In this document: piece after piece, positions 6,427-50,890 of the stretch
How the letters are laid out: every line of letters begins with the position of its first letter
How positions within the stretch are numbered: position 1 is the first letter of the stretch
Virus record (IMG/VR): IMGVR_UViG_3300037069_000769
Location: 38,322-102,321 of that record
Length of the DNA stretch: 64,000 bases
From: a virus
Direction: 5' to 3' (one strand)
Program-made: the position numbers and the translations under genes
The notes under the pieces: generated by a model
Databases searched by the model: none
Told to the model about the DNA's origin: nothing
Seen by the model: the letters and a program-made list of their open reading frames with translations, nothing else

Positions 6427-7175
6427 TGATCTTTTGCGGTAACGCGATTGTCGAGGAAAGGTACTTTGAAGGGGATTGGGGCACTGAACTGCGGGGTTTT
6501 TCAGACTCCTTAACTTTGCAAACGTTTGCAATTTTTTTGAGTTCTGTTACGCGGCAGGGTTTTGAAGCTATCAATTTACCGTCTGTCAGTAGTGCGTCAG
6601 GTTCAGTAGGGGTTGGGGTAGTTGGAAGTCTCAGTGCCTCAGCGACTGGCAACCTACAGAGTGGTGATGTGGTGGGAGTTGTAGCCGACCTTGAGTTAAG
6701 TGTCGCAAATTTGTATGCTACCTCAGGGGTTGTGAGTGCTGAGGTATCATTTGCTGCGAACTCGGTGTGCGAACTTCTTCTGACTGCGGTTAATCAACTT
6801 CACGAGGTTATTGAATCTGATGCCGTAGCTAGTGAGATAATGTCGGCTCAAAATGAGCTTGTGGGTAGTCTAACTGAGATCGTTCGGGCTGGCTTATTGG
6901 GGCAGTTGTCAAATTCAATCGCGGATCAGATGACCTTAGGGATTTCGGCCGAGATTGCGTTTTCTGCCGGCAAGCATTACATTGAGAGTTTTGCCCTAGC
7001 CGTGTTGTCCCAACTGGAGCTTGCTGGGGTCTCCGGACGAACGTTTAACGTATTGAGGGTGTTGGGCGAAGCTTTTAAGCAAGCTCTAATGTCCATCGAA
7101 TCTCTCACGCAAGGTGACATGATTGATGAGACGCTTCGAGATAGCGATCTAACTGACGAAACATTTCTTCCTTGA
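6423..7175 (+). CDS. hypothetical protein
   Basis: 250 aa, ATGA-coupled; contains palindrome copy 6517 (LQTFA). Confidence 0.6.
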   Translation: MMIFCGNAIVEERYFEGDWGTELRGFSDSLTLQTFAIFLSSVTRQGFEAINLPSVSSASGSVGVGVVGSLSASATGNLQSGDVVGVVADLELSVANLYATSGVVSAEVSFAANSVCELLLTAVNQLHEVIESDAVASEIMSAQNELVGSLTEIVRAGLLGQLSNSIADQMTLGISAEIAFSAGKHYIESFALAVLSQLELAGVSGRTFNVLRVLGEAFKQALMSIESLTQGDMIDETLRDSDLTDETFLP

Positions 7176-7186
7176 GGGTGGCACAT

Positions 7187-8044
7187 ATGAAGTGGCTGTT
7201 TCAACTGATCTCCGCTCTGTACCGTGCCTATACCCCCGGCAGCTTGTTCGGTCAGACTACCGTTTTGAACTTCAAGTCTGAGTGTAGAGATTCAGATGGG
7301 AAACTTCGCTGGACGGATGATGTAAACCTCCCAGTGGTGATTGCTGGCAATATCCTTCCGCTATTGGGGCTGTTTGTAGCGTTGTCGCTGCTAGTGCCAT
7401 ACGGCAGTTGGATCGCCTTGGGGTTAGTGACCACCGCGGGCCTCAATAAGTTGCTTGACGCAACCGTTAAGACTGGTTTGACTTCGCCCGCATGGTACGT
7501 TGGGCTTATTGGGGCTAAAGTTACTGACGGTGCGATGACGGCATCGTCGGCTACTTTGACTTCGGCAAGTAATCCGTTTGCATCCGGTGATGTTGGCTTG
7601 CATATCATTGTTCGTGGTGCGGGAGCGGCTGGAGCCGATCTTTACACTACGATCAGTGCTTATACTAATGCTGGCCAAGTTACTCTGGCGGCTACGGCTG
7701 GGACAACTGTAAGTGGGGCTGGGGTAGCCTTCGATCCCCGTCCTGCTGACACGATGGCCTCGCATTCGTTTGTAAGTGTTACTCCGTTCAGTAACTCTAC
7801 TCGACCTGCTTGGACTCCGGGCAGCATCTCTGCGGGGTCTGTGAGTAATTCGGGTTCTCCCGCAGTGTTCACCGTCAATGCTTCGTCATACGTGTTCGGG
7901 GCGTTTCTTGCTGACGATAGCGGTGTTAGCGGTACTACCGGAACTCTGTACGGAGGATCAATGTTTACTGGAGGTATCGCTCGGCAGGTGGCCAGTGGTG
8001 ATACTTTGACTGTAACTGGGACTCTTACAGTGACGGCAGCATGA
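7187..8044 (+). CDS. hypothetical virion protein
   Basis: T/S/G/A-rich; LVTTAGLNKLLD...WYVGLI...GDTLTVT resembles phage minor structural proteins; N-terminal hydrophobic stretch. Confidence 0.6.
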   Translation: MKWLFQLISALYRAYTPGSLFGQTTVLNFKSECRDSDGKLRWTDDVNLPVVIAGNILPLLGLFVALSLLVPYGSWIALGLVTTAGLNKLLDATVKTGLTSPAWYVGLIGAKVTDGAMTASSATLTSASNPFASGDVGLHIIVRGAGAAGADLYTTISAYTNAGQVTLAATAGTTVSGAGVAFDPRPADTMASHSFVSVTPFSNSTRPAWTPGSISAGSVSNSGSPAVFTVNASSYVFGAFLADDSGVSGTTGTLYGGSMFTGGIARQVASGDTLTVTGTLTVTAA

Positions 8045-8400
8045 CCACAACCTTTGAGGTAGATCAGGGAACATCTGCTAGATACTCTGCTACTCTGGTG
8101 GATGAGAATAGTGACCCCATTTCTGGGGCCGATCTCTTTTCATTAGTGTTGACGCTAACTGCTGCTGATGGGAGTTATATTAACTCTCGAAATAGTCAGA
8201 ATGTGTTAAACGCTAATGGAGTGACTGTGGATGATAGTGGGGTATTAGTGTGGGACTTGGCTCCCGCAGATAATCCTATTGTAAGCTCTATCGGGCTCGG
8301 TGGGGTTGAGGAGCACGACGCTCTATTTGAGTTTACGTGGTCGGGTGGGGCAAAAGCTGCCAAGCATCGAATTTCCCTGCTGGTAACTAAGTTGAAATAG
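8041..8400 (+). CDS. hypothetical Ig-like virion protein
   Basis: 119 aa beta-sandwich-like pattern; ATGA-coupled. Confidence 0.5.
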   Translation: MTTTFEVDQGTSARYSATLVDENSDPISGADLFSLVLTLTAADGSYINSRNSQNVLNANGVTVDDSGVLVWDLAPADNPIVSSIGLGGVEEHDALFEFTWSGGAKAAKHRISLLVTKLK

Positions 8401-8435
8401 TGCAAACGTTTGCAATTTCCTCACAGGTGTGTAGC

Positions 8436-9956
8436 ATGGCAAATGCTGACGGTAAAGAGCTTCTGATGCTTAGCTCCCCTGTGGGCTTTGTGCTGGAGGA
8501 GGTGGATGCGACTCAGACACCTTTAGCGATTAAAGGATTTGTGTCTGTGGAGAGTAAGGACCGCAGTGGGGACTTTGTTCCCGCTGATGGCTTCTCGATT
8601 CAGCAGTTTATGTCGGCTCCGACGATGCTGGTGAATCATGCTTACTGGAACGATGAATTCGGTAATAAGGTTGGAGTCGGAAGACCTCTTTCCTTGACCG
8701 TTGCTAAGCTTGCTTCCATTGCTGGAGACGATGCTAACTGGGCCATCCTCGACGCTGTTAGCGGAGAGCAGGTTAATACTTTTCCGAAAGCTAAGGTTCC
8801 CAATTTGACTGCTGGGGACCGTGGTTTGTTTGTAACCGCCGAGGTGACTAGATGGGATGTCGCTCAGATGGTTGCTCGGGGAGAGCTGGGAGCCTTCTCA
8901 TGGAGGGGATTGGCTCAAGTTGATTACGTTGTGGGAAAAAACAGTGAGATCATACGTCGTCTGACCGGCATTGATTTGTGGGAAGTTAGTCTTGTAAACG
9001 TTCCCAACAACCCCAACGCTACATTCACTGTCGGTAAGAGTGTTCAGGGAGTTCGTGTTGCCAAGTCCCGCTTTGAGGGGGCTGGAGTAGCTTCAGAGTA
9101 TCTAAAGTGTCATGGCGTTTGCCCATGTGACTTGCGTGAGGATAGCGATTTCTATTACGCATCTTTGAAGCCTGTGTCATCCTTTGCGGCCAAATCCTTG
9201 GTATTGACTAAGATGGCTGATGGGGTGGAGATGATTGCCGGAGAAACTGCTGCACCTCCTATGAGTACGATTGCGTGGGACGAACGTGCTTTAGGTGCTG
9301 AACTTGTTGCAAAACTCGCTTTATTTGAAAAGGAAGGGACGATGACTGAAGCTGCCAAAACGGCACCCGCTGCTGAGGGTACTGTTGTGAATCCTCCTGC
9401 TGCGACTGACGTCGCGAACGCTGCGGGCAAGAAGAAGTCTCAAAAGGACTGTGGGCCGAGTCAGACCTACGATCCCGATCAGGACGAGTGCGTTGCTTCC
9501 AAGACCGCTGAGTCTGCCGAAGCCGCGATGAAGAATTTGGGCGAGATGCTTGCCACTAAGACGGTTGAAGGACTCACTGCCGCTTTGACCCCGGTCTTCG
9601 CTGAGATGACCAAGTCCATGACGACCCTCTCTGAGGGTATGCAGAGTATTGCCACCAAGATGGCTGAGTCTCCGACGGCTGCACCCGCTGCCGCTCCTGT
9701 GACGACTCCGGCTGTCGAAACGGCTAAAAACGAAGTCGTATCGGACCCCGTTACCGTATCGAAGTCCGCCGAAGCCTTGCAGGCCATTTTGGCTCCGCTG
9801 GTCAAAGTGGTCGCGGATGTGCAGAAGGCTGTTGATACCGTGTCAAAGACGACTCCGGCCCCGATTGTTCGGGATGAGCGTATTGACACGTCGAAGACTG
9901 TTGCTGAGTCGCCGAATTCGGTGTTCGACAACATCTTTGCGTTCACCAAGAAGTAA
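8436..9956 (+). CDS. prohead protease (HK97-type) fused to scaffold-like C-terminus
   Basis: IKGFVS..SKDRSGD, MLVNH, GAFSWRG, LWEVSLVNVPNNPNA; A/T/P-rich C-terminal half; precedes MCP. Confidence 0.85.
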   Translation: MANADGKELLMLSSPVGFVLEEVDATQTPLAIKGFVSVESKDRSGDFVPADGFSIQQFMSAPTMLVNHAYWNDEFGNKVGVGRPLSLTVAKLASIAGDDANWAILDAVSGEQVNTFPKAKVPNLTAGDRGLFVTAEVTRWDVAQMVARGELGAFSWRGLAQVDYVVGKNSEIIRRLTGIDLWEVSLVNVPNNPNATFTVGKSVQGVRVAKSRFEGAGVASEYLKCHGVCPCDLREDSDFYYASLKPVSSFAAKSLVLTKMADGVEMIAGETAAPPMSTIAWDERALGAELVAKLALFEKEGTMTEAAKTAPAAEGTVVNPPAATDVANAAGKKKSQKDCGPSQTYDPDQDECVASKTAESAEAAMKNLGEMLATKTVEGLTAALTPVFAEMTKSMTTLSEGMQSIATKMAESPTAAPAAAPVTTPAVETAKNEVVSDPVTVSKSAEALQAILAPLVKVVADVQKAVDTVSKTTPAPIVRDERIDTSKTVAESPNSVFDNIFAFTKK

Positions 9957-10023
9957 GTTCCAATCTCAACTGCATTGTCGCTTTGCAAACGTTTGCAAGG
10001 GTCACTTTTTTCTGGGGTGTTGA

Positions 10024-11025
10024 ATGACTGCTGAAATCAAGCTTCCGCTTGGCCAGATGTTTTCGAAGTCGGCAATTGACGAGACTTCGTTGCCGAACTC
10101 CATTCTGAATCGCCAGCAAGCGAATCGATTCATTGACATGGTCGTCGATGAAGCCATTCTGATGAAGAATGTGCGGGTGGTTCGTACGGATACGAACAAG
10201 GGCGAAATCAACAAGTTGGACCTTGGCACCATTGTGACGCAGGGTGCCAGCACTACGAGTCGGGCAACCACTCGTATTCCGACTGAGAAGGTCGTGACCT
10301 ATGATACTGAGAAGTATCGGTCGGCCTTCGATCTGAAGACGGACTTCATGGAGGATAACCTTGAGAAGGGCGGAGCCCGCGATACTCTGCTCGGGATGTT
10401 CTCGAAGCGTATGGCAATCGATACTGAGTTGGCTGCCATCGAAGGTGATAGCACGCTCGCGACCGGCGACTCTCAGTCTGACGAGAACAACCTGCTCGGC
10501 GTGAACGACGGATTCAGCAAGATTTTGCTGGCCAACGTTCCCAGTGCTCAGCAGGTGGATGCAAGTGGAGATGCTCCGAGCAAGCGGCTCTACTACGAGA
10601 TGAAGCGTCGGATTCCCTCGCGTTATCGCGTTGCGAAACCCGATTACGTGTGGATCGTTCCGTCGGGGCCTGCTGATAAGTGGAAGCTGGACTGGTCGGA
10701 TCGTGAAACCGTGGGTGGCGACTCGGCCTTGTCTTCGGGTCTGGTCCCCGGCCCGTGGGGCATTCCGATGCTCGAAGTCCCGCTGATGCCCGAAGACCTG
10801 AGCTTCGGCACCATCGGCACGGATGGATGCCAGATTTGGCTGACCCCGCTCAAGAACCTGATCTACTTTGTCCAGCGGGACATCACGATCGAGTTCGACC
10901 GCCGCCCGCGTCAGGACGTGTGGGAAGTGACCATCCACTTCCGAGTGGACTTCGAGATTGAGAATACGGAGTTGGTCATCATGGCGAAGAATGTTTCGCT
11001 GAGTGGCTCCGACTATACCGGCTAA
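10024..11025 (+). CDS. major capsid protein (HK97 fold)
   Basis: 333 aa after protease; LNRQQANRFID, DFMEDNLE, DTELAAIEGD, NDGF, PWGIPMLEVPLMP, RVDFEIE. Confidence 0.9.
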   Translation: MTAEIKLPLGQMFSKSAIDETSLPNSILNRQQANRFIDMVVDEAILMKNVRVVRTDTNKGEINKLDLGTIVTQGASTTSRATTRIPTEKVVTYDTEKYRSAFDLKTDFMEDNLEKGGARDTLLGMFSKRMAIDTELAAIEGDSTLATGDSQSDENNLLGVNDGFSKILLANVPSAQQVDASGDAPSKRLYYEMKRRIPSRYRVAKPDYVWIVPSGPADKWKLDWSDRETVGGDSALSSGLVPGPWGIPMLEVPLMPEDLSFGTIGTDGCQIWLTPLKNLIYFVQRDITIEFDRRPRQDVWEVTIHFRVDFEIENTELVIMAKNVSLSGSDYTG

Positions 11026-11092
11026 TCCCCGATGTTTGGGCGGCTACTGTGAGCGAAATCTCCGGTAGCCGCCTCTTCCTTGTGAGGTGCAC

Positions 11093-12268
11093 ATGGATGG
11101 GTTCAAGGTAGTGGATGGGGAAGAACCTCGTGCCTCGATTCCTGACGGGTGGTTCAGTAAGTCAGATGGTCCCCCTCTTAGAGTTGCGTTGAAGTTTGTT
11201 GGCGGAGTTGGTGACATTACGATGGCTATAGGGGGCACAGCTTCAGCCCTCGACGGGCGGTCTTGTTTCGTTGACGCCTTTGTTCTGCCTCACCAAGTTA
11301 AGTATGCTGCGATACTCTCAGGCATTCGTAAGGCATACCCCGTTGCAAGTTGGAATGAGCCTGAAACACGTTTTCAGTATGATGTGGTCATTGACTTCGC
11401 AGGTGTTCTGAATAACGCCCGAAGCTTGAAGGCCAAAGATTACTACGAATTGATTAGCGAGCGGGTGGGCACGTTAGTCAAGCCGGGATCGTATTTGGGA
11501 TTTACGTTTAAGCCTCAACCGGTAGCATGTGTGGCACTTCACCCCGGAGCAAGTAACCCGAACCGACGTTGGCCTTATTCAAATTGGGATAAGTTAGCAT
11601 ACATGCTGGCATCCCGAGAGCTAGAAGTGTTGTGGCTTGGAACCCGTGACGATTACGGGTTTAACGACGAGAAATGCGGAATTTGGAAGCTGAGTGATTA
11701 CTACGAAGATTTGGTAACTCAGACCAAGAAGCTTGCCACGTTCCGATATTTCATTGGAAATGATTCAGGATTTGCACACATCGCCGGCCTGCTAGGCGTA
11801 CCCGGAGTGGTACTGTTTAGTTCGACCCACCCCGACGATGTGATTGCGAGATACGATTCTTTGAGAGGTGTTCACCGATTCGATTTAGTCGGAGAGCCTA
11901 CTCGAAGTTTGGATAAGAAAGACCGGAGGTCATTGGACGCACTGGAGGCACTTACTCCAGAAGACGTGTTGAATGCCACCCCTTTCAAGGATACTCCTGA
12001 TAAGCAGCAGATAAAAAGGCCGCTGCCTGCTCGAAGACGCAAGATTGTTTTGGTTGGGTCGATCCCACTTGCTGACCGTTTGTACGAGTTCTTAGCCGAT
12101 CTATATGATGTGGAACGGAGTAAGAATGTGTCAGAGAACTTAGAGTACGATGGACTCTTGGTTATCTCTGAGGCTGGTTGTGAATTACGAACGGCAAAAA
12201 ACGTAAGTAGGGTAAACGTGAGTGACTTTGAAAACGTCACTAGGGCAATCCGTGAACGACTTGCGTAG
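11093..12268 (+). CDS. glycosyltransferase family 9 (heptosyltransferase-like)
   Basis: GGVGD, YDVVIDF, LHPGASNPNRRWP, FIGNDSGFAHIAGLLGVPGVVLF. Confidence 0.9.
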   Translation: MDGFKVVDGEEPRASIPDGWFSKSDGPPLRVALKFVGGVGDITMAIGGTASALDGRSCFVDAFVLPHQVKYAAILSGIRKAYPVASWNEPETRFQYDVVIDFAGVLNNARSLKAKDYYELISERVGTLVKPGSYLGFTFKPQPVACVALHPGASNPNRRWPYSNWDKLAYMLASRELEVLWLGTRDDYGFNDEKCGIWKLSDYYEDLVTQTKKLATFRYFIGNDSGFAHIAGLLGVPGVVLFSSTHPDDVIARYDSLRGVHRFDLVGEPTRSLDKKDRRSLDALEALTPEDVLNATPFKDTPDKQQIKRPLPARRRKIVLVGSIPLADRLYEFLADLYDVERSKNVSENLEYDGLLVISEAGCELRTAKNVSRVNVSDFENVTRAIRERLA

Positions 12269-12319
12269 AAAGCTTCACCTATGAGCGGAGGCAAGAGCCC
12301 CCGGAAAGGAGGTCTTGAG

Positions 12320-12877
12320 ATGGACGAGACCCCCGTAACGGAGAACAGGGTACTTCACAGTAGAATCAACGACATTGAGGATGATGTTCAAGGGTTCGGG
12401 CAACAGCTAGCTAGCGTCAAGTCCGAGGTAGCTCATATCTCACTCGGGCTTGACAAGTTAGCTAAGGGCTTTGAAACTTTTGCCAGTTCGGTCAGTGTTA
12501 GTAACAAACCGAACTGGCAGACGATCGCAGCGTGGGCTGGCCTTGTTATCGGTATCATGGGGTCTTTGGGATACCTATACCAACAGCCTTTACAGCAGCG
12601 ATTGGATAAGATCGACGGAGATATGCCTGCCATACGGCGGGCTACTGCTGAATACCAAGTAAAGTTTGATGGGATCGAGCGAGAGATCGTACTTCGGGAA
12701 GAACTTCAACAGGAACGCCTGAAGAGACTTGACGAAAAGATCGATCTGTACACCAAACTTTCCATTTACGAGCGAGAGCATCAACGATCATGGCAGTTAC
12801 CGCCAACACGACTACCGTCAGCTCCACTGGGCAAGAAGTTTATGTCGGAGATACTGGATGCACCCTCTTCACCGTGA
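12320..12877 (+). CDS. hypothetical coiled-coil protein with one transmembrane helix
   Basis: AAGGAGG RBS; WQTIAAWAGLVIGIMGSLGYLY between coiled coils; possibly lysis-related. Confidence 0.55.
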   Translation: MDETPVTENRVLHSRINDIEDDVQGFGQQLASVKSEVAHISLGLDKLAKGFETFASSVSVSNKPNWQTIAAWAGLVIGIMGSLGYLYQQPLQQRLDKIDGDMPAIRRATAEYQVKFDGIEREIVLREELQQERLKRLDEKIDLYTKLSIYEREHQRSWQLPPTRLPSAPLGKKFMSEILDAPSSP

Positions 12878-13098
12878 CGGTGCCTTCAACTTCAACGCAG
12901 GACGCCCTTGTGAACGTGGCGGGCCTGCACTCCCGATCTACGGACAGCAACAGCACTCCTGTTGACTTCTTCCGCGTGCGTAAGGGAGCTACCCAAACGT
13001 TTCGCATGGAGAAGGGCGGTATTCGCCGAGTGTTTATCAAGGGTGATAGCGGGAATGCTACTGTTGACTGGGGTGTTACAGGACGTACCTCTTTCTAG
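12790..13098 (+). CDS. hypothetical small beta-rich protein
   Basis: 102 aa, T/V-rich; overlaps end of previous ORF. Confidence 0.55.
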   Translation: MAVTANTTTVSSTGQEVYVGDTGCTLFTVTVPSTSTQDALVNVAGLHSRSTDSNSTPVDFFRVRKGATQTFRMEKGGIRRVFIKGDSGNATVDWGVTGRTSF

Positions 13099-13107
13099 GT
13101 GGACCGT

Positions 13108-13806
13108 ATGGGAAACTACGCAACCGTAGCAGATGTCCGAAACTTCAAAGTTGCTGGTCAGCCTATCGACCTCTCGGGGTTGACTGACGTTGATATTGAG
13201 GACGACATTGCTTTGGCTGAAGAGGTGGTGGAATTAGTTACGGGGGACATCTTTTACGTTAAGACAGAGACGAATAAGTTCGACGGATCGGGCCTTTATT
13301 CTCTGCACTTTGTCCCTCAGATTCCCTACCAGTTGTTGAGTGTCACCTCGATTGAGGATGTTGATCCCGGCAGTCAGGTGATGTACACTTACCAACCCAC
13401 TGACTTCGTGGTGTATCCCTACCATATCGAGTTGACACAGGAATGCGGTGATCCGCGTTACAACTTTGGTAGGTCGGGTGTTTGGCCCCGAGGTCAGCAA
13501 AACATCGTGATTGCGGGAACGTGGGGCAATGCCACCTGCCCTGCGGCAATCAGACGGGCAGTAGTTTTGCTCACTCTTGAGAGGATCATGCCGGGATCAA
13601 CTCAAATGATTCCTGACGGGATTGCTCAAGCTCAGTGGCCTGACTATCTCGTGACGTTCAAAGGTCGAGCAGCTCAAGGAATTACGACAGGGTACGTTGA
13701 GGTGGATTTGCTGCTTGAGAAGCACATCAACCATAACGGTATGTTCATCGTGGTGCCCGATCAGAAGCAGACCTATGACGGTAACCGGATCAAACTGGTG
13801 CACTAA
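13108..13806 (+). CDS. head-tail adaptor/connector
   Basis: YATVADV N-terminus, GQQNIVIAGTWG...PAAIRRAV; position after capsid genes. Confidence 0.75.
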   Translation: MGNYATVADVRNFKVAGQPIDLSGLTDVDIEDDIALAEEVVELVTGDIFYVKTETNKFDGSGLYSLHFVPQIPYQLLSVTSIEDVDPGSQVMYTYQPTDFVVYPYHIELTQECGDPRYNFGRSGVWPRGQQNIVIAGTWGNATCPAAIRRAVVLLTLERIMPGSTQMIPDGIAQAQWPDYLVTFKGRAAQGITTGYVEVDLLLEKHINHNGMFIVVPDQKQTYDGNRIKLVH

Positions 13807-13922
13807 CATGAAAAATTGGGGTTTGATACTGTTGGGAATTTTGCTTGGAGCTGCTCCTTTTCTGTTGGTGCTCTTGTACGTTTGGTTACTGTTCGCAACT
13901 GAAAGTCCTATAGGAGATACTC

Positions 13923-14219
13923 ATGTCGGTTCGTGCGAAGTTTACGTGCTACGAAAAAATCCCCGCGACTGCTCCAGACTGCGATGGCGGTCAGGTCAAG
14001 TTGAGAGCGGTGATCGACGGCAGTGCTGAGAATGAGGCGTTCTTTCACTACACGCCTTACGGCGAGTTGTCGATGGGAACGATCAATCAGGCCGCATTCG
14101 ATCAGTTTGAGGTAGGGAAGCAGTACTATCTCGACATCTCTTCGGCTGAAGTCCCAACTGTCGCAACTCGTGAGAAGACTCCGGATGAAGAGGCTTCTGA
14201 TCCCAGATACTGCGGTTGA
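13923..14219 (+). CDS. conserved phage hypothetical protein
   Basis: AGGAG RBS; VRAKF...ENEAFFHYTPYG...FEVGKQYYLD pattern. Confidence 0.7.
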   Translation: MSVRAKFTCYEKIPATAPDCDGGQVKLRAVIDGSAENEAFFHYTPYGELSMGTINQAAFDQFEVGKQYYLDISSAEVPTVATREKTPDEEASDPRYCG

Positions 14220-14245
14220 TTTTGCAAACGTTTGCACGGTGATCT

Positions 14246-14626
14246 ATGCCCGCAATTCCCTTGTTTGGTCTGCCTCACAAGATTGACGTTTACAAACTGG
14301 CGGATGCTGACGACGGGGCAGGGGGCGTTATTCCGGGAGGAGCTAGAACTAATCTCTACACTGGGCTTAGGGCTAGAATCTCCCGGATGGTGGACAAAGA
14401 CGAAAACGAACTTTTTGGTCAAGCAACCGGGGAACATTGGCGAGTTGTAGTTGCCCCAAGCAGTATCCCCAAAGGATGCTTCATCACCCTAAACGCCAAT
14501 TGTATTCCGGCTCCTCTTGACCAAGGCGAGGTATGTCAGGTGATCTACGCCAAGAAGGAGATCGATCACGTAGGCAACCATAACCACACTTCAGTAGTTA
14601 TGCACCTATGGACTGGTGACAAGTGA
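14246..14626 (+). CDS. putative head-closure protein
   Basis: 126 aa with DDGAGG loop; synteny. Confidence 0.6.
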   Translation: MPAIPLFGLPHKIDVYKLADADDGAGGVIPGGARTNLYTGLRARISRMVDKDENELFGQATGEHWRVVVAPSSIPKGCFITLNANCIPAPLDQGEVCQVIYAKKEIDHVGNHNHTSVVMHLWTGDK

Positions 14627-15120: not shown

Positions 15121-15121
15121 T

Positions 15122-40531: not shown

Positions 40532-40532
40532 A

Positions 40533-42037: not shown

Positions 42038-43039
42038 ATGACCTTGGACGAATTGAAGTTGATCCTTCGTAGATTGTCGATCCCATGCGACAACTTGAAA
42101 CCTTGGGGCAAAGAGAAGGATCAAGTTCAGATTCCCTGTCCTCTGGCTCCGTGGTTTCATTCGAGTAAGACTGACTCTCACCCATCCCTGTCGATTAAGT
42201 TTGAGAATAAGACAGGATGGACAGTATTTAAGTGTTGGGCTTGCAAGGAGCAAGGTAAGCTTTGGGAGTTGGTGCAATCTCTCGGAGCATTAAGGAAGGA
42301 TGATTCGCTGTTAGAGTTGGCTAATCAGCTACACGATAGTGATCGGCCTACTTTGACAGCCCTATTTGAGTCTATGTCTCAAGGAATTGAGAAATGGACA
42401 TTAGATAAACACGTCGCCGGGCCGATGGTGCTTAGCGAGGATGTTTTCAAGCATTTTCACCCCGCTTGGGAGCATTCAGTCAGTCGGGTGTATTTGAGTG
42501 GACGAGATGTTTCTCCTGAACTGTGTACGGAGTTTGGGCTTCTCTATGACACTCGCCAAGAGCGTGTTGTATTTCCTGTACGCGATAGGTCAGGAAACCT
42601 TGTTGGGGGTGTTGGTCGAGCAATCACCGGAAGAGAGCCTCGCTACTTTAACTATCTTAATTTTCCCAGTGGTGCTACTCTTGGGGGACATGATCGACTG
42701 GATAACGAGCGACCGTTTCTCATTGTGGTTGAAGGATTTTTTGATCTGCTGAGATGCTACCGCTGGGCACATGATGTCGAATCTGACATTGTGTGTACTT
42801 GGAAATCTGAGGTGGCCGAAGCTCAAGCTGATCTGATATTGCAGCTTGACAAAAGTATCCAGATTTGGTATGATGGAGATGAAGCTGGACGCGAAGGTTG
42901 GAACAAAGCGTCTAGGTCGTTGGGGCCTGTAGCCCTAGGTTTACGGCGAGCTACACTACCGGAAGATAAAGACCCCGGTGAGTTAGTCGAAGCCGAATTT
43001 CTTTCTGTGTTTCGCTCTACTATGGGAGCACTTCGATGA
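42038..43039 (+). CDS. DNA primase (Zn-binding + TOPRIM)
   Basis: CP....H...CWAC; VVEGFFD; YDGDEAG; KDPGE. Confidence 0.9.
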   Translation: MTLDELKLILRRLSIPCDNLKPWGKEKDQVQIPCPLAPWFHSSKTDSHPSLSIKFENKTGWTVFKCWACKEQGKLWELVQSLGALRKDDSLLELANQLHDSDRPTLTALFESMSQGIEKWTLDKHVAGPMVLSEDVFKHFHPAWEHSVSRVYLSGRDVSPELCTEFGLLYDTRQERVVFPVRDRSGNLVGGVGRAITGREPRYFNYLNFPSGATLGGHDRLDNERPFLIVVEGFFDLLRCYRWAHDVESDIVCTWKSEVAEAQADLILQLDKSIQIWYDGDEAGREGWNKASRSLGPVALGLRRATLPEDKDPGELVEAEFLSVFRSTMGALR

Positions 43040-43713
43040 GTGATGAAAGTTTGCCTCCGTGGATGACTGGTGCCGGGCTTGATGATGATATGAAGGGCGA
43101 CCCCTCCGGGAGTAGCTCGGTGTATCGCTTCTGGATGCCGAAAGGCACCTCCCGCAATGTTGTCTTCCTGACTGACGGGAATAAGTCTCCGATCATTTGG
43201 GAGCATAACTACCAGTATCGGGGGAATTGGAGAAACTGGCTGACCTGTCTTTCCGGAATGGGGGTAAGATGCCCCATGTGTGACTTCCACGAGAAGGAAG
43301 GTAAATACGGTAGGTACAAGATTCAACTCTTCACTGTCATCGACTGTAACAAGTTCACTGACAAGAAGGGTGTCGTTCGTGAGAACGAGAAGCGTGTCGT
43401 CTGTGCCAAGAAGGATTCCTGCGAGGTCATTGCCCGACGTTGGAAAACGTTGATGGAGAATGGCAATACTCTGCGGTACGCGATGTTCAAAGTGCATCGC
43501 GGAAACAGTGATAAGTCAGCAGGTGTTGGTGACGATTACGAGTTCATCAAGATGGTCGATCCTGCAACCATTGCGGACCCGGCTCCTATGGACTACAAGG
43601 AGCTGTTTGCTCCCCAGCCCGAGAAGATGGCTCGTGTTGTTGAAATCTTGTCGTCTAAGGTAGCAGCGGGAGAAGATGCTCCCGAGGGAACTGATACCTC
43701 AGTCGCATACTAA
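43036..43713 (+). CDS. single-stranded DNA-binding protein (gp32-like)
   Basis: EHN...TC...CPMC Zn site; acidic C-terminal tail; between primase and polymerase. Confidence 0.65.
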   Translation: MSDESLPPWMTGAGLDDDMKGDPSGSSSVYRFWMPKGTSRNVVFLTDGNKSPIIWEHNYQYRGNWRNWLTCLSGMGVRCPMCDFHEKEGKYGRYKIQLFTVIDCNKFTDKKGVVRENEKRVVCAKKDSCEVIARRWKTLMENGNTLRYAMFKVHRGNSDKSAGVGDDYEFIKMVDPATIADPAPMDYKELFAPQPEKMARVVEILSSKVAAGEDAPEGTDTSVAY

Positions 43714-43728
43714 GTCGGTTTTCCAGTT

Positions 43729-43764
43729 GGGTGGGTTTGCAAACGTTTGCAAACCCATCCTTTT
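43729..43764 (+). terminator. hairpin built around a palindrome copy (26-bp perfect palindrome)
   Basis: TGGGTTTGCAAACGTTTGCAAACCCA at 43732-43757 followed by TCCTTTT. Confidence 0.55.
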
Positions 43765-43780
43765 CCTTTGAAAGCATATC

Positions 43781-45769
43781 ATGAGTACCGTTGAAGAAAC
43801 GATGTCACCGGCTCAGGTGCGTGCTCGAAACTTTGTAGCGGCTGCTAAGACCTACAAGCGTTTCGCATTTGACATTGAGCATGATCCAAATGTGGAGCCA
43901 ACCGACGTTGGTTTCATCATTCACGGATGTAGTTTCTGCTGTGAAGATATGGTCTTCTATGAGACCGATCTAAGCATTGTGCAGCTCATCCTGCTTGACC
44001 TGTTTGACGATCCCGAACTTGAGGCTATTGCCTTTAACGGTAAGTACGACCTGAAGTGTCTCATCTCTTCGGGCATCATCACGCAGTATCAGTACCCCAA
44101 GAGTTTCGTTGACCCGATGATCGGGGTGAACCTCTTGGACGATAATCGAAAGAAAGGCGAGATGGGCCTTAAGTCGATTATCTATGATAAATACAAGCAC
44201 GTTATGGTTCACTTCGAGGAGGCTATCGTTGATGGGCTGACCTCGGTGAAGTTCCGTCTGTATGCTGAGGATGATGCTCGACAGGAGTATCGTCTTTGGT
44301 CTGACATTCGCCCGGAACTTGAGAAGTCCAACCTGCTAAAGGTGCTGACGAAGGTTTTGTGTCCGGCCAGCTTGGTCTTTGCGGATATGGAGCTTGCGGG
44401 ACTGCACTGGGACTTGAAGGGAGCCCGAGACTTACTTCGAGGGTATCAGGCTTTGCGTGACGAGTTTCACGCTATGGCTTTGAAGGAACTCGGGCCGATT
44501 AATTTGGCATCCGGGGATCAATTGGCCAAGAGATTGTTTGAGGAATTGGGATATTCTACTGAGGGTGTGCCTCTCACTAAGTCGGGTAAACGGTACAGCG
44601 TCGATGCTGATACGATGGAGATGCTTGCGAAGAAGTATCCTATCTGTCAGAAAATTGCCCGGTATCGTACTGCTGAGAAGATGATAAACACGTACGTTGA
44701 GCCGATCACCCGAAAGTGTCTGGCCGATGTGAATCGTCGAGTGCATCCTTCATTCTGGCAGATTTCGGCCACTGGCCGTACTCGGTGCGAAGACCCCAAC
44801 TTCCAGAACATCCCATCATTTCTTGCGAAGGAGTTTTCGCACCTCTCGATCAAGAAGAACTTCATTGCAGCTCCGGGGCATAAGTTCATCATCGCTGACC
44901 TTTCGCAGATTGAGTTGCGACTGGTAGCCCATATTACGCAAGACCCTCTGTTCCTTGCAGCGTACAAGAATTGGACTTGTACGGCATGTGGGCAGAAGGG
45001 TACTTCGGATAAGATTTTGCACTCATGTCCTAACTGTGGGCAGGCTGAAGTTGAAGCTATTTTGCAAACGTGCCCAAATCCGAAGTGTAAAACTCCTCAC
45101 GTCAACTTCGACAAGAAGACCAAGACCTGTGGTGTATGTCGCGGCGAGGTGACCAAGGAAGTCGCCACGATTAGAGGTTTTTGGCACGGGCTGGACTTGC
45201 ACCAAATCACGACCGATAAGGTGTCTGCTCTAGGCGGGGAACGCCAGAACGGTAAGGTCGCTAACTTTGCTCTGGTGTATTGTGCTACGGCAACCCGCAT
45301 GCACTACGAATACCCTGATATGAGCAAATCTCAGTGGCAGAGTATTATCGATCAGTACATGGAGACGTACAAGGGCGTTGCTAGATGGCATGAGCGAATG
45401 GAGCGAGGTTTGCATGAGAGCGGCGTGGGCATCGACATCTTTGGACGTCGCCGCAGAATTCCCCGCTTTACGATTCAGCAGAACAAGAAGCACGCTCTGA
45501 ACCAGTTCGTCAACTTCGGGCCTCAAGCTGGGGCCTGTGAGATGATGCAGTTGTCTATGAGCCGAATCCGTGAGGAGTGCATCGGACTTGGGACTTGGAT
45601 CAATGAGATTGTTCAAGTCAACATGGTGCATGACGAAGGTGTATGGGAAGTCAAGGAAGACAAGGTTGAGCAGCATGCGGCCATCATTCAGAAGCACCTC
45701 GAAAACTCTGTGCAGCTTCGCGTGCCAGTTCGCACCAGCTTAATCGTCAGTGACTGCTGGTCTAAGTAA
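43781..45769 (+). CDS. DNA polymerase family A with 3'-5' exonuclease and Cys-rich insertion
   Basis: FDIE, FNGKYD, YAEDD exo motifs; ATGR, PNFQNIP, DLSQIELR, RQNGKVANFALVY, VHDE. Confidence 0.95.
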   Translation: MSTVEETMSPAQVRARNFVAAAKTYKRFAFDIEHDPNVEPTDVGFIIHGCSFCCEDMVFYETDLSIVQLILLDLFDDPELEAIAFNGKYDLKCLISSGIITQYQYPKSFVDPMIGVNLLDDNRKKGEMGLKSIIYDKYKHVMVHFEEAIVDGLTSVKFRLYAEDDARQEYRLWSDIRPELEKSNLLKVLTKVLCPASLVFADMELAGLHWDLKGARDLLRGYQALRDEFHAMALKELGPINLASGDQLAKRLFEELGYSTEGVPLTKSGKRYSVDADTMEMLAKKYPICQKIARYRTAEKMINTYVEPITRKCLADVNRRVHPSFWQISATGRTRCEDPNFQNIPSFLAKEFSHLSIKKNFIAAPGHKFIIADLSQIELRLVAHITQDPLFLAAYKNWTCTACGQKGTSDKILHSCPNCGQAEVEAILQTCPNPKCKTPHVNFDKKTKTCGVCRGEVTKEVATIRGFWHGLDLHQITTDKVSALGGERQNGKVANFALVYCATATRMHYEYPDMSKSQWQSIIDQYMETYKGVARWHERMERGLHESGVGIDIFGRRRRIPRFTIQQNKKHALNQFVNFGPQAGACEMMQLSMSRIREECIGLGTWINEIVQVNMVHDEGVWEVKEDKVEQHAAIIQKHLENSVQLRVPVRTSLIVSDCWSK

Positions 45770-45794
45770 GTTTCCTTGTGCAAACGTTTGCAAA

Positions 45795-47156
45795 ATGCGA
45801 CCCTGTATTCTCAATCGACTGTTGTGGGTTCCCAAGGAAGCCGTAGATGTGAGTAGGGTAAAGTCTCAGTTGACTTTGCATACTACCCCGTTTATTGGCA
45901 AGCCTGAAGAAATCCCGTTGTACGTTGATGGAAACGACTACCTCGGCGTGCCTCGAAACTGGGGATACGAGAATCGATGGGTGCATGCTAAGACTACCAT
46001 CGAAGATCGGATGGTGCAACCTTTCTATGGATGGCCCGACATTCAGTTTCCCGGAGATGGGACGTACTGGGCAGGTCAAAAGGAATCCATTGAGGGTATG
46101 TATTCCTTCCTGCGACCTAATTGTGGGGGCCTGCTTGAGGCGGGATGCGGTGCCGGGAAAACCCTTATGGGCATGGATATTGCTTCCCGGTTTCACACCC
46201 CAACTCTGATCCTAGTTCACAAGACTGATCTTGCTGACCAGTGGCATGAGACTGCCAAAACTTTCTTTCCGACCGTATTGGCGGGGCATGTTCAGGGTGA
46301 CGTGTGGAACTGGCGAGGTAAGCATTACGTTGTCGCAACTGCTCAAACGATTGTATCAAGAAAGGATGCTCTTGATCCCGAGTTTATCGCCAATTTCGGT
46401 TGTGTGATCTTCGACGAAGGGCATCGTTATCCTGCTAGAACGTTTGAGCAGATTTTGGGAATGTTTCCCGCTAGACGGCGGTTGGCCGTATCAGCAACTT
46501 GGCGTAGAAACGACGGGCTCGAAGCCGTATGGCATTGGCACGTCGGGCATGTCGGGTGGAGAACTAAGAGTGTACGCCTGACTGGTGAGTATGTTCAAGT
46601 TGAGTGGCGTACGTCCATCAAAGAGCGAGATATTCTCCAGTACGGTAAGTTGAATATCTCGAAAGCGTTGGAGCAGATTACGGCCAGTTCGCTGTATAAC
46701 GAGTGGTTGACCAAAAGCTTGATGGCGGGAGCAGGTGTTGACCGCAAAGTACTGCTTGTTAGCGATCGTATTGAGCATCTTGTTGATATTCGACGACGTT
46801 TGATGCTCGCCGGATGTGATCGCACTGTAGGGATGTACGTTGGGCAATGGCCTGATGCTGCGGGTAAGCGGAAGGTCGTTAAGAAGGATGAGCTTGAGCA
46901 GGCCAAGTCCTGTGACATTATCCTCGCAACCTACAAGAAGATGAATGAGGGGACTGACATTCCTGCCCTCGATACCCTGATTTTGGGAACTCCGAAGTCG
47001 GATGTTGAGCAGGTGGTCGGAAGAATCCAACGACATAAGGAAGATAAGCGTAAGTTGCTTATCATTGACCCTGTGTTTCAAACACCATCCCTGATTCGCA
47101 TGGGCGAGAAGAGGGAAAAGGTGTATAAAAATTTAGGATTTGTGAGGCAATCATGA
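45795..47156 (+). CDS. superfamily 2 helicase
   Basis: GCGAGKT, DEGH, SAT, EGTDIP.LD, QVVGRIQR. Confidence 0.92.
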   Translation: MRPCILNRLLWVPKEAVDVSRVKSQLTLHTTPFIGKPEEIPLYVDGNDYLGVPRNWGYENRWVHAKTTIEDRMVQPFYGWPDIQFPGDGTYWAGQKESIEGMYSFLRPNCGGLLEAGCGAGKTLMGMDIASRFHTPTLILVHKTDLADQWHETAKTFFPTVLAGHVQGDVWNWRGKHYVVATAQTIVSRKDALDPEFIANFGCVIFDEGHRYPARTFEQILGMFPARRRLAVSATWRRNDGLEAVWHWHVGHVGWRTKSVRLTGEYVQVEWRTSIKERDILQYGKLNISKALEQITASSLYNEWLTKSLMAGAGVDRKVLLVSDRIEHLVDIRRRLMLAGCDRTVGMYVGQWPDAAGKRKVVKKDELEQAKSCDIILATYKKMNEGTDIPALDTLILGTPKSDVEQVVGRIQRHKEDKRKLLIIDPVFQTPSLIRMGEKREKVYKNLGFVRQS

Positions 47157-47503
47157 TTGAGGATGATGTTGGTAGTGATGGTATTGCGGCCCCCAGCAGT
47201 GGCTCACTGATGGTGAATCGCATGTACTACGCGAGTAAGGTGCTCACGAAAGAGGAGGCTACCGAGGAAACCATCGAGGTCCGCAAACCCGCTGTGGGCA
47301 TCCCTCTGGCTCAAGTGTCGGTTGGCGGCAGCATGACTGTTAACATGGGCAACTTTGAGAGTGTTAAGTTGTACGTGGGCGTGACCCTTCCTTGCTATGT
47401 TGAGGAAGTGGACTCATGTTACAGCGTTGCTAAGTTGTTTGTCGATAAACATTTGAACCTTGAGATTGCGGCCCTCCGCGATCATCGTGATTCTAAGAAG
47501 TAG
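47153..47503 (+). CDS. hypothetical protein
   Basis: TVNMGNFES motif common in phage proteins. Confidence 0.65.
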   Translation: MIEDDVGSDGIAAPSSGSLMVNRMYYASKVLTKEEATEETIEVRKPAVGIPLAQVSVGGSMTVNMGNFESVKLYVGVTLPCYVEEVDSCYSVAKLFVDKHLNLEIAALRDHRDSKK

Positions 47504-47512
47504 GGGAACTCT

Positions 47513-48637
47513 GTGGCCAAGAAGAAAGAGAAGGATGAGAAGCTCGGATCAGGCTTGTCCCCCACGGTTGATGCGTGGCGGGATAAGGTGAATAAGGTGT
47601 ATGAGTCCGAGGTCATCGCTGACGGTGGAAAATTTGCAGCGTTAAAGATGCTGAGATTCTCTTCCGGGATTCTTACCCTCGATCTTGCATTGGGTGGGGG
47701 ATGGCCATTCGGTCGTGTGGTTACTGTAGCTGGTGACTTCTCTACCGGTAAGACCGTAACTGCTATGAAGGCAGCTTGCGAGATTATGAACTACGATCAT
47801 GTGTACCATGTGCATAAGGATCGGTTGGCCAAAGTTGCACCTACTGCTACGTTTCAACCCTGTCGAGCCCTCTTTATGGACGTTGAGGGCACGTTTGATT
47901 TGGAGTGGGCCGAAGCGAACGGATTTGATCCCAAGTATCACGAGGTAAGTAGGCCAGCCTACGCAGAGCAGTGCATCGACGTTGTTGATGACGCTATTAG
48001 GTCAGGGCTGTTCGATCTGGTGATTGTAGACTCTCTTGCTGCCTTGACTCCGACTGCTGAGATTGAGTCCAGCACGGAAGAGTGGCAAATGGGTTTGCAG
48101 GCCCGCCTGATTAACAAGGCTATGCGGAAATGGAATTCCGCTGTAGTTACCCGCTCGCAACAGTGTCCGACGGGAGTGCCTACTGTGTTCTGCTTGAACC
48201 AGTTCCGCCTGAAGATCGGTGTTTACATGGGTGATCCTCGTGTGATGCCGGGCGGGGAAGGGCAGAAGTTTTGTAATTCCATTATCATCTACACCAAGTC
48301 CGCTGACTACGATGATAGCAAGGACGAGGAGTTGGATGAGGTTGAGTTGCGGGGCCTCGTATTCAAGAATAAGACTGCGATCCCGAAACAAAATTATACT
48401 TTCACCTTGACTTTGAAAGACAAGGATGGTATAAAAAAGGGTACGGTAAAAAATGTCAATGATTTGTTCGACTTTGGAGTGGCGTACGGGCTCATCGTTA
48501 AGACGCCTTCTGTGAAGTTTAACGGGGTTGAGTATCCGACACAAAAGGCATTGAAAGATTACCTGAATGTTTCGGATGCAAGTCGAAGGTTGTTGTGGAA
48601 GTCGATTGTGCATCAAGCTACTGGTCAGCTTGTGTGA
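47513..48637 (+). CDS. recA: RecA/UvsX-like recombinase
   Basis: SSGILTLDLALGGG, GDFSTGKT, VDSLAAL, GLQARL, NQFR, PGG, KNK. Confidence 0.95.
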   Translation: MAKKKEKDEKLGSGLSPTVDAWRDKVNKVYESEVIADGGKFAALKMLRFSSGILTLDLALGGGWPFGRVVTVAGDFSTGKTVTAMKAACEIMNYDHVYHVHKDRLAKVAPTATFQPCRALFMDVEGTFDLEWAEANGFDPKYHEVSRPAYAEQCIDVVDDAIRSGLFDLVIVDSLAALTPTAEIESSTEEWQMGLQARLINKAMRKWNSAVVTRSQQCPTGVPTVFCLNQFRLKIGVYMGDPRVMPGGEGQKFCNSIIIYTKSADYDDSKDEELDEVELRGLVFKNKTAIPKQNYTFTLTLKDKDGIKKGTVKNVNDLFDFGVAYGLIVKTPSVKFNGVEYPTQKALKDYLNVSDASRRLLWKSIVHQATGQLV

Positions 48638-48663
48638 TTTGCAAACGTTTGCAAAGGTGAGCG

Positions 48664-48909
48664 ATGGGCCGTCAGACTGCTGAGATAGCCACCCGACATA
48701 GGTTGATGGTGAAGTTGGCCATCAAGGCCCTCTGGCGGTTGAATGCTCCGTTAACGTCTCGGCAAATTGCCACTCACACCGGCTTGACAATCTGGTGTGT
48801 GAACCAGATACTGCGTCGGAATCTGGACATATTCAGGCGGGTCGATGTGCCCACTAAGGGCGGTCGAATCCATAGTAGGGGTGTTCAGGTGTATTGGGAG
48901 CTGTACTGA
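48664..48909 (+). CDS. small winged-HTH protein
   Basis: PLTSRQIATHTGL...VNQIL. Confidence 0.5.
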   Translation: MGRQTAEIATRHRLMVKLAIKALWRLNAPLTSRQIATHTGLTIWCVNQILRRNLDIFRRVDVPTKGGRIHSRGVQVYWELY

Positions 48910-49361
48910 TGTCTCTTGATCGTGCGGGACGAAAGCAGCCGGGAGCCCCAAAGTTGGGGTCAAAGAAGTCTGGAAAGGCTGCTGTAAACGAGCATGAGTA
49001 TGAGTTAGCTGAGAAACTGGGAGGTCGGCGACAGCCTGCCTCGGGAGCCTTAGCTGCTCATAAGGGAGACATTAAGACCCGAGATTTCCTGTTTGATTCG
49101 AAGGAGACGGAAGCAACTGCAATCAGTGTGTTCGGCACTGATCTTACGAAGATTACTCGTGAGGCTCGGGGTGAGGGTAAACATCCGGGCCTTGTTTTGA
49201 CTATTCGAGGGGTGCCGTCAACCACTGACAGTGAGTGGGCGTGCATCCCCTTGGATGTATTTGCAAGTATTCTTGCAGAATTGGAGAATCAACGTGAAGC
49301 CCTCAGAAAAAATCCGTCAGATGGTACAGCAGGCTCGGGACTCGGGGGAAGTAGTTCCTGA
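48909..49361 (+). CDS. PD-(D/E)xK nuclease, resolvase-like
   Basis: E..LA...GG...PASGA...KGDI...FDSK. Confidence 0.7.
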   Translation: MSLDRAGRKQPGAPKLGSKKSGKAAVNEHEYELAEKLGGRRQPASGALAAHKGDIKTRDFLFDSKETEATAISVFGTDLTKITREARGEGKHPGLVLTIRGVPSTTDSEWACIPLDVFASILAELENQREALRKNPSDGTAGSGLGGSSS

Positions 49362-49938
49362 CGATCACCCTAGCAAGCATCCTCTTACTGCGAAGGTGTA
49401 TGAGTATATTTGTAATGGGCATTTGCCTGCTACGAATGCTCCAAGACTTCGCGGAGCAACTGATGAGGAGATTGCTGCTGCTTTTCCGGACGTGGCCCAT
49501 AATAATGTGCGATGGGCTCGTTGGAGTATGACCAAGAACGGATACATCCTTGATTCGGGAATCCGTAGGGCCAAGTTGAAGAATCGCGGGCAGGCAAAAG
49601 TTTGGGTAAAGGCTGATGTGCCTGAGAAGAAGCGAGGCCGAGGTGTAATCAAGCCTCAGTCGATCTTCAATGAGATGTTGGGCATCATCCTGATGTATCC
49701 GCAAAGTGAGTGGCCTCTTCTGCTGGAGCAGTTAGCCTCTGACTTCAAATTGAACTTTGATATGGATGATTTCAGGAAGAGGCTACAAAGTGTTGGAGGC
49801 ATTCAAACTAGCGGAGACTTTGAAGTCCGCTCCGTCAGTTCCGGAGGCGGAGGTGAGATCATCCTCATCGACCCCCGTAACTCTGAAGGATCGCGAAGCT
49901 CCCAAGATGCTGGAGATCAAGAACCCAGCTCTGCTTAA
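49294..49938 (+). CDS. hypothetical protein
   Basis: GGAG RBS before GTG; HTH-like GATDEEIA...RW. Confidence 0.5.
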   Translation: MKPSEKIRQMVQQARDSGEVVPDDHPSKHPLTAKVYEYICNGHLPATNAPRLRGATDEEIAAAFPDVAHNNVRWARWSMTKNGYILDSGIRRAKLKNRGQAKVWVKADVPEKKRGRGVIKPQSIFNEMLGIILMYPQSEWPLLLEQLASDFKLNFDMDDFRKRLQSVGGIQTSGDFEVRSVSSGGGGEIILIDPRNSEGSRSSQDAGDQEPSSA

Positions 49939-50890
49939 CGTTACGAAAGCAGTTAATGCTTGGGTTGATTCGTGGCCCAACCAGAACTCCTACACAGATT
50001 TCCTTCGAGCATCATCTCTGCATGGGGTGTGTCCGAGGGAGTTTGTGTTTAATTATTGGCAACCGAAGGCTAATCGCAGTTTCGACGCTAAGTCCCGTGT
50101 TCTCATGTCTATCGGGACTCATTTGCACTCATTGAAGCAGAACCAGGTTCTTGGACCCTTGGGCATTCTATGGGGCACTTGGAAGTACGTGGGCAGCTCT
50201 GAGGCTTTGAAGACCCACGAAGGGTTCCATCCTGACCCTGATGAAGCTGTATGGGCGATGGTACATGAGAAGGAGCAGAAGTGGGAGTATGTTGAGCCCG
50301 AGGTGTGGGATGAGAAGTATAGAATCAAAGGGCACATTGACGGGTTGATTGATGTTGGTAGGTTAGAGTGGTTGAATTCCAATCTGCCTCTGCTGAAGAA
50401 AGACCCGATTTCAACTTGCAAACGTTTGCACGCGATGGCTCCTACACAGCGAATGCTGTTTGAATTGAAGACAACTGGTAGTTTTGTCTTTGACAAGTTG
50501 GTAGCACCCAAAGACATTGCTGACTACTACCAGATGCAGGCGTGTATCTACCAGAGATTGATGGGCGTGTCTCATACTCTGTTCTGGTATGTGAATCGAG
50601 ATACTGCGGCGTCCAAGTTGTTGTTGTACGCTTACGATGCTGGCTGGTGGCGGGATGCTACAAGAAAGGCTAGGATCATTTGGGAGAGTATTAGAGATGA
50701 AGTCCTGCCGGAGGCATTGATGCCCTGTCACTCTCCAACTGATAAGCGTGCTAAGGAATGTGTGCACTGTCCAGTGTGCTTCGGGAAGTTGGACTTTAAG
50801 AAGTACGTTGAGTCGGGTAAGGAGAGAGCTGCTAAGGAAGGTCGAAAGTTGCTCGATTTGCGAGGGATTAGTTTTGAAACGCCTGCGTGA
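49757..50890 (+). CDS. Cas4-like PD-(D/E)xK exonuclease
   Basis: CPR, GTHLH, GHIDG, ELKT, QACIY, C-terminal C...CVHC; start uncertain. Confidence 0.8.
   Translation: MIWMISGRGYKVLEAFKLAETLKSAPSVPEAEVRSSSSTPVTLKDREAPKMLEIKNPALLNVTKAVNAWVDSWPNQNSYTDFLRASSLHGVCPREFVFNYWQPKANRSFDAKSRVLMSIGTHLHSLKQNQVLGPLGILWGTWKYVGSSEALKTHEGFHPDPDEAVWAMVHEKEQKWEYVEPEVWDEKYRIKGHIDGLIDVGRLEWLNSNLPLLKKDPISTCKRLHAMAPTQRMLFELKTTGSFVFDKLVAPKDIADYYQMQACIYQRLMGVSHTLFWYVNRDTAASKLLLYAYDAGWWRDATRKARIIWESIRDEVLPEALMPCHSPTDKRAKECVHCPVCFGKLDFKKYVESGKERAAKEGRKLLDLRGISFETPA

Follow-up and report, generated by a model that had tools for sequence, protein, structure and literature searches.

Palindrome copies inside phage genes as probable members of a family-wide array of two-fold-symmetric DNA sites

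The closest published case to the sites analyzed here is that of the Cluster O mycobacteriophages (Corndog and others), phages without integrase whose genomes of about 70 kb carry more than 30 invariant inverted repeats, a 17-bp dyad of the form TGTTCGG-N3-CCGAACA (PMC4351075). About one third of these repeats are in coding regions, many are intergenic, and there is no association with promoters; the dimeric protein predicted to bind them was never identified, and their function is unexplained (PMC4351075). The Cluster A mycobacteriophages contain stoperators (associated with the L5 gp71 repressor), dozens of identical short sites located mostly in short intergenic gaps, away from promoters (PMC4351075). 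Here, an array of a 14-bp palindrome, TGCAAACGTTTGCA, is described in the phage of IMG/VR record IMGVR_UViG_3300037069_000769 (102,321 bp, only about 80% complete). The right-hand 64 kb of this record is called the window, and positions are those of the window unless given as genome positions; G and L numbers are labels for the genomes and sequences of relatives, G000 being this phage. Several copies of the palindrome are inside genes, and these probably function as part of an array of two-fold-symmetric DNA sites that spans the genome, and are not coding accidents.

As in Cluster O, tens of near-invariant dyads are distributed genome-wide, both between and within genes and without a link to promoters, although the phage family, the host and the word are unrelated and the arms are 7-N3-7 in Cluster O and 5-N4-5 (or 7+7) here. 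By this comparison the array is an analogue of the Cluster O repeats and not a relative of them. Four elements are new with respect to that case: slots kept across deep divergence, changes of reading frame, a significant regularity and a candidate reader. The stoperators are asymmetric, oriented with transcription and involved in lysogenic silencing, in contrast to the perfect palindromes of this phage; no Phage_integrase match was found in the record, a result that at about 80% completeness is not final. There is also a likeness to parS, the Noc-binding site and the RK2 KorB operators (PMC11790492), which are 14-16 bp palindromes dispersed over a replicon and read by a dimeric helix-turn-helix (HTH) protein; a likeness in the type of reader is no more than suggested, by the predicted middle domain of a candidate protein, which superposes on Noc and Spo0J domains. 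Unlike ParB, Noc and KorB, this candidate lacks the CTPase clamp, and there are about 50 sites, some of them intragenic, compared with a few near origins or promoters.

The window contains 27 exact and 4 one-mismatch copies of the 14-mer (435..63913, no strand being assigned to this span or to copies outside genes), compared with 0.02 predicted by shuffles at up to one mismatch, and the entire record contains 44 exact and 9 one-mismatch copies. Two-mismatch copies are absent from the record, which is uninformative because, by our own estimate, only about 0.3 are expected by chance. Nearly all genes are on the plus strand and the majority of the copies are in small intergenic gaps, a typical site lying 0-30 nt past a stop codon and 9-30 nt ahead of an ATG with a ribosome-binding site; 4 exact and 3 variant copies in the window are inside open reading frames (ORFs), and the remaining variant (G12T, 25458..25471) has no ORF across it. 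The flanks show a preference at just two bases each way (T-T before, A-A/C after), giving a site of 16-18 bp, and no promoter-like element or motif beyond these two bases is conserved at the sites. Promoter and terminator scans revealed neither enrichment of sigma-70-type promoters or terminators nor a systematic overlap with the sites; the array is independent of promoters.

To the left of the window, a perfect 26-bp palindrome that encloses the 14-mer and is followed by a T run (genome 16108-16133; RNA hairpin of -15.3 kcal/mol) precedes an 11/12 sigma-70 promoter (genome 16150-16178), and the 14-mer probably forms part of a terminator there. At genome 2305-2333 and 19894-19922, promoters match the sigma-70 consensus at 12/12 positions and have an extended -10 TG, which suggests that the host RNA polymerase probably recognizes the canonical consensus.

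All seven intragenic copies in the window are on the plus strand. Two of the four exact copies read LQTFA, one at codons 32-36 of ORF 6423-7175 (6517..6530, probably intragenic) and the other, which is lineage-specific, at codon 211 of a GT4 glycosyltransferase gene (36019..36032 in 35388-37160); the other two read ANVCK at codon 68 of a DnaC-like loader gene (40078..40091 in 39875-40531) and CKRLH at codon 221 of a Cas4-like exonuclease gene (50417..50430 in 49757-50890). The variants are an A6G copy reading LQAFA(K) in the small ORF 25973-26230, whose status as a gene is uncertain (26064..26077), and two T9C copies, one reading VQTLAK at codon 186 of a GNT-I-like glycosyltransferase gene (33925..33938 in 33369-34820) and one reading LQTLAN at codon 55 of a winged-HTH (wHTH) initiator-like gene (39218..39231 in 39055-39948), which lies within a 24-bp near-palindrome. 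The positions, frames and peptides given for these copies in the preliminary description proved correct when the 31 matches in the window and their translations were checked, and so did its remark that three of the four variants are intragenic and alter a base next to the central CG (position 6 or 9). It had also placed the copies in all three reading frames, which is true of the exact copies, while five of the seven intragenic ones share a single frame (xTG-CAA-ACG-TTT-GCA).

Alignments with homologues cover the site in the GT4, DnaC-like, GNT-I-like and wHTH initiator-like genes, so that these four copies are truly internal, and the Cas4-like gene is backed by PHROG matches and homologues. 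No homologues were found for ORFs 6423-7175 and 25973-26230; their codon log-odds are coding-like on either side of the site, by which measure both are probably real genes. Outside the window on its left side, the large terminase gene (gpA type, 920 aa; genome 35990-38752, extending into window 1-431) has a one-mismatch copy at codon 112; the N-terminal part of this terminase has a weak LAGLIDADG-like match, which may reflect an intein or an inserted homing endonuclease.

It had been proposed that the motif is kept even at a cost to protein sequence, with the lineage specificity of its peptides in alignments with homologues as a check. Both hold for the GT4 and DnaC-like proteins, which depart from the consensus of their families: LQTFA in the GT4 protein stands where about 30 homologues have V-R-R-L-Q-like residues, and a near-invariant Asp shortly upstream is Ala in this phage, while the Cys of A-N-V-C-K in the DnaC-like loader is found in no homologue, A-N-V being present in some. 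Lineage specificity did not hold at 33925 and 39218, where the peptides ([VL]-Q-[TS]-[LI]-A) are kept in homologues, including ones without the motif, and for this reason these slots probably began as coding sequence that resembled the motif. Both variants change TTT to CTT and thereby keep a Leu/Ile that is conserved among homologues, which accounts for the change falling on the base beside the central CG.

The gaps between sites have a coefficient of variation (CV) of 0.49, where random positions give 0.97 and gene junctions drawn at random 1.00 +/- 0.145 (P<5e-5); there are about 50 sites in the genome at roughly 2-kb intervals. The spacing is over-dispersed and far more regular than chance, a pattern that suggests a physical function along the molecule and not regulation gene by gene. 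The intragenic copies contribute to this regularity: the largest gap in the window is 8,871 bp (32984 to 41855) without them and 5,152 bp with them, and they lower the sum of squared gaps beyond random coding positions (P=0.0025 for exact copies, 0.015 with variants). The earlier suspicion that they fill stretches otherwise lacking a site is borne out in this way, although the filling is incomplete and gaps of 4-5 kb persist, for example in the 1,342-aa tape-measure gene.

The relatives compared are syntenic with this phage at 25-60% protein identity. No relative at the nucleotide level was found in the phage collection, and IMG/VR scans with a single GT4 or Cas4-like protein gave no match, whereas alignment-based scans did find relatives. 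Orthologous slots in these relatives hold their own variant of the dyad; four such slots are intragenic, and two of the four are read in another frame. The most widely conserved of them is codon 55 of the initiator-like gene, where L078 has the same one-mismatch variant, L067 and G010 have their own exact motif (P-H-T-C-A), L079 and G008 also have their own (I-Q-S-I-G) and a TGCAAT version occurs in L077. Codon 186 of the GNT-I-like gene is occupied in L067 and G010 by their own exact motif, and variants are found there in G007, G011, L078 and L083. In GT462, a second glycosyltransferase encoded left of the window (genome 33797), A-N-V-C-K in this phage corresponds to V-Q-S-I-A in G007, because the motif of G007 is offset by 1 nt and is therefore read in a different frame. 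In the Cas4-like gene, the motif of G008 lies within about 15 nt of the slot of this phage, also in another frame.

Intergenic slots are common to relatives as well (8401, 16314, 43738, 55251 and 45779). Among them, the copy at the PolA/helicase junction (45779..45792) has its slot even in the very distant G001, and the one at a structural-gene junction (16314..16327) in G006, G007, G010 and G013, with their own motifs. Position is not conserved for the exact copies at 36019 and 40078; in L078 a site precedes the GT4 gene by 67 nt, and the pattern formed with 36019 looks like relocation within a region and not like a fixed point. The changes between lineages at the slots are in-place substitutions, with no indels.

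In the whole-record analysis, an array was present in all the relatives examined, each lineage having its own version of the word. G001, G002 and G005 carry the same 14-mer as this phage, and G003 and G004 carry TGCA-n-ACGT-n-TGCA. Different arms are found in G007 (TGCAA-N4-TTGCA, 19 copies), G008 (TCCAA-N4-TTGGA, 63 copies), G009 (TGTCC-N4-GGACA, 7 copies), G010 (CGCAC-N4-GTGCG, 6 copies), G011 (TGCAAG-N1/2-CTTGCA, 56 copies) and G006 (GTGAA-N6-TTCAC, 9 copies), while G012 and G013 have TGCA-N6-TGCA. The spacing of the arms is constant within most genomes, and is N4 in the majority. G001 has about a dozen genes in common with this phage, at 25-33% identity, yet its 14-mer is identical. The closest isolated phages infect Vibrio, Rhizobium and Rhodobacter, and TGCAA-N4-TTGCA dyads are also found in isolates: 17 in Rhizobium phage RHph_TM16 (MN988459.1), 9 in Rhodobacter phage RcZahn (MW677529.1) and 16 in Aeromonas phage HJ05 (OQ594355.1), with 0 for a control pattern. 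The published description of RcZahn is silent on palindromes, inverted repeats and repeated sequences, and a literature search with the exact word found nothing related.

The nucleotide word is under selection, as the departing peptides, the conserved slots and the regular spacing indicate, and arrays are an ancient feature of this family of tailed phages, whose genomes are roughly 80-105 kb long. Selection on the nucleotide sequence, and possibly on spacing, had been put forward from this one stretch of DNA, and the dyads that relatives have at the same slots, together with the CV of 0.49, now support it. Since change is concerted within each genome at orthologous slots, a trans-acting reader with drifting specificity is implied, which we infer to be a protein acting on duplex DNA; the sites are most likely docking sites for a paired DNA-binding protein. 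In the simplest mechanism, a dimeric sequence-specific protein would read double-stranded DNA at the dyads, and its specificity would drift together with the sites, lineage by lineage; where there is no room at gene junctions, the site would be written into coding sequence and the protein sequence would yield. The even spacing and the lack of a link to promoters suggest genome-wide organization, coating or roadblock-type silencing over the control of individual promoters.

The genes common to all array-bearing genomes are a replication/recombination core and two unknowns. One of the latter, 51992-53026 (plus strand), encodes a 344-aa core protein and is found in all genomes that have an array and are reasonably complete, the distant G001 and G003 among them. 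Pfam gives no match to this protein, and PHROG, Pfam and the protein atlas yield no named function. In its structure model (mean pLDDT of 81), residues ~100-226 form a region that resembles the ParB/Noc HTH domain: the top twelve Foldseek matches and VIA-align place them onto the DNA-binding domains of Noc, Spo0J and ParB (Z 7.1-7.9, root-mean-square deviation (rmsd) of 2.2-2.9 A over 95-101 residues), spanning the whole 105-residue Noc domain. The CTPase N-terminal domain is missing, so that a clamp-and-slide mechanism is not implied. An exact copy of the palindrome (51936..51949) ends 42 nt before the ATG of the gene, and a site is present 42-181 nt upstream of it in this phage, G008, RcZahn, HJ05 and KarBoss (which has just 3 such sites in 87 kb). 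The putative recognition helix reads Y-R-K-A-M-Y both in this phage and in the distant G001, which have the identical 14-mer, and differs in closer relatives with other dyads. On these grounds, the product of 51992-53026 may be the reader of the palindrome, an identification that we offer tentatively, and it might then control its own expression by way of the upstream site. That the family as a whole (about 1,300 homologues), with a ParB/Noc-type DNA-binding domain only, reads 10-60 evenly spaced dyads per genome, including some in essential genes, is conceivable, although we would put it forward with still more reserve.

The isolates RHph_TM16, RcZahn and HJ05, with their 9-17 dyads each, encode homologues of this protein. 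The annotations of RcZahn and RHph_TM16 place a resolvase directly upstream (in RcZahn the order is Cas4 exonuclease, RuvC-like resolvase and gp66), unannotated hypothetical proteins flank the homologue gp88 in HJ05, and Rhizobium records label it 'ribonuclease E/G family', probably wrongly.

Several observations weigh against this interpretation, in part against a dimeric reader of duplex DNA and in part against the candidate. G011, a complete 101-kb genome with terminal repeats, has 33 sites with N3 (TGCAA-N3-TTGCA) and 23 with N4, a mix that a rigid dimer would tolerate poorly. The central base of its 13-mers is biased 17:5 in orientation with respect to the coding strand, and in the asymmetric variants of G003, seen on the sense strand, the right half is changed about 8 times and the left about 3 times; these biases hint at some strand-specific constraint. 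As for the candidate, a Z below 8 is middling for a helical domain, and the resemblance to ParB/Noc is for this reason rated as suggestive. Its gene is absent from G002, despite the same 14-mer, and the correlation between helix and dyad is imperfect, since L388 and G003 have the same or a similar dyad with a helix A/G-R-K-A-K-Y; this covariation is, moreover, confounded by shared descent.

G002 deserves separate mention, as it is an unrelated 40-kb element with terminal repeats that has one ORF in common with any other genome and none with this phage, and its 5 exact and 2 variant 14-mers all lie in a stretch of about 12 kb. At 24.7-26.3 kb the element encodes a canonical ParB of full length that contains the G-E-R-R-x-R motif, and its group of sites may represent a genuine parS-type cluster based on the same word.

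The presence of the same 14-mer in the unrelated G002, in 5 exact and 2 variant copies, and in the very distant G001, which could reflect a shared host, is also what would be expected if a host protein, either a LacI/PurR-type regulator or a nucleoid protein, read the sites, so that phages of the same host would converge and a host switch would retune all the sites. The 16-mer occurs across many bacterial genomes, and the word fits the LacI-family pattern, TGnAAnCGnTTnCA, and the core of the PurR box. We consider this unlikely, because the variants of the relatives (TCCAA, TGTCC and CGCAC arms, centres other than CG, N6) do not fit one host family and the phages conserve a protein of suitable fold, with a site upstream of its gene. 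The phage itself does not encode a LacI-family regulator (PF00356 gives just a 14.9-bit generic HTH match), and the bacterial matches to the 16-mer are scattered over many phyla, with no pointer to a host. A different possibility is that the element works as RNA, as a small intercistronic hairpin for processing, stability or translational control. Most copies do follow a stop codon and precede the next ribosome-binding site, on a single coding strand, a few are extended into long hairpins such as the 26-nt palindrome of -15.3 kcal/mol with its T run, and the orientation bias of asymmetric variants in G003 and G011 and the variable loop length in G011 would agree with it. The core hairpin is weak, however (-2.9 kcal/mol for 14 nt and -4.8 for 18 nt), no stem covariation is seen among the 53 copies of this genome, in which the loop bases are invariant, the sense-strand variants of G003 produce A-C and A-G mismatches, and sites are found in the middle of the genes for the helicase loader, the exonuclease and glycosyltransferases, whose transcripts would be ruined by cleavage at these points; all this makes an RNA role distinctly improbable. 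The preference for DNA binding over mRNA cleavage expressed in the preliminary description is supported by the weak hairpin, the pairing-breaking variants and the mid-ORF sites, and by the rigid spacing of the arms.

A reader with a CTPase fold would be a ParB_N protein, encoded left of the window, that loads at the sites and then slides along and coats the genome, or recruits adjacent DNA-modification enzymes. It scores above the Pfam cut-off for ParB_N, superposes on the CTP-bound folds of ParB, Noc and KorB (Z 13-15.5, rmsd 1.5-1.7 A, 93-97 residues) and co-occurs with arrays in eight genomes (G000, G001, G004, G007-G009, G012 and G013); furthermore, palindromes of 14-16 bp are typical of ParB-family sites and a spacing of about 2 kb suits a short sliding range. 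We regard this as very improbable nonetheless, as some relatives with ParB_N show no clear array in 21 kb, no match to the Tet_JBP dioxygenase partner was obtained, and the arrays of G011 (complete, 56 sites) and G006 (9 sites) exist without a ParB_N domain, from which it follows that this protein cannot be a required reader. Finally, the intragenic copies might have no function of their own, being either a by-product of conserved peptides or a selfish repeat of the repetitive extragenic palindromic (REP) or miniature inverted-repeat transposable element (MITE) type. The recurrence of the 33925 and 39218 peptides in motif-less homologues speaks for a by-product, but codon choice agrees with 13 of the 14 motif bases, and relatives swap the peptide to suit their own motif (P-H-T-C-A, I-Q-S-I-G). 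The copies are not insertion-born and non-orthologous, as REP or MITE copies would be: they occupy orthologous slots, with different frames at one slot, and change in place without insertion or deletion, which excludes a copying element. This last explanation is, on the whole, scarcely credible.

The gene block that contains the ParB_N gene (genome 28398-35341, directly upstream of TerS/TerL) also encodes an unknown 353-aa protein, a DegT-type aminotransferase, a radical-SAM enzyme and a glycosyltransferase, and resembles ParB-associated DNA-hypermodification neighbourhoods (PMC13229309), but without a Tet_JBP match. The ParB-activated thymine-dioxygenase pathway (PMC13229309) was discarded, since Tet_JBP gave no match and G006 and G011 keep their arrays without this gene block. 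An 89-aa Cro/CI-type HTH protein was also rejected as reader, as it is not conserved in relatives. In the window, a 225-aa core protein encoded between the primase and PolA genes (43036-43713) has gp32-type single-strand-binding protein as its nearest protein-atlas clusters, a lead on its function, and a gene pair for a MoxR/CbbQ-type AAA ATPase and a VWA-domain protein is present, as is a ThyX thymidylate synthase (53719-58226 and 60137-61219).

Since 2015, dyad repeats that span the whole genome have been noticed in a few phage groups, and no explanation has been given for them. The family described here provides unusually clean evidence that the word itself is selected, as each relative has its own word in the same slots, at a cost to protein sequence. 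The candidate reader can be tested, also in culturable phages, and, if it is confirmed, the purpose of such repeats would become experimentally tractable. If true, the phages would encode a genome-wide system for organizing or silencing DNA that co-evolves with its own sites, and this may explain, by analogy, repeats of the Cluster O type.

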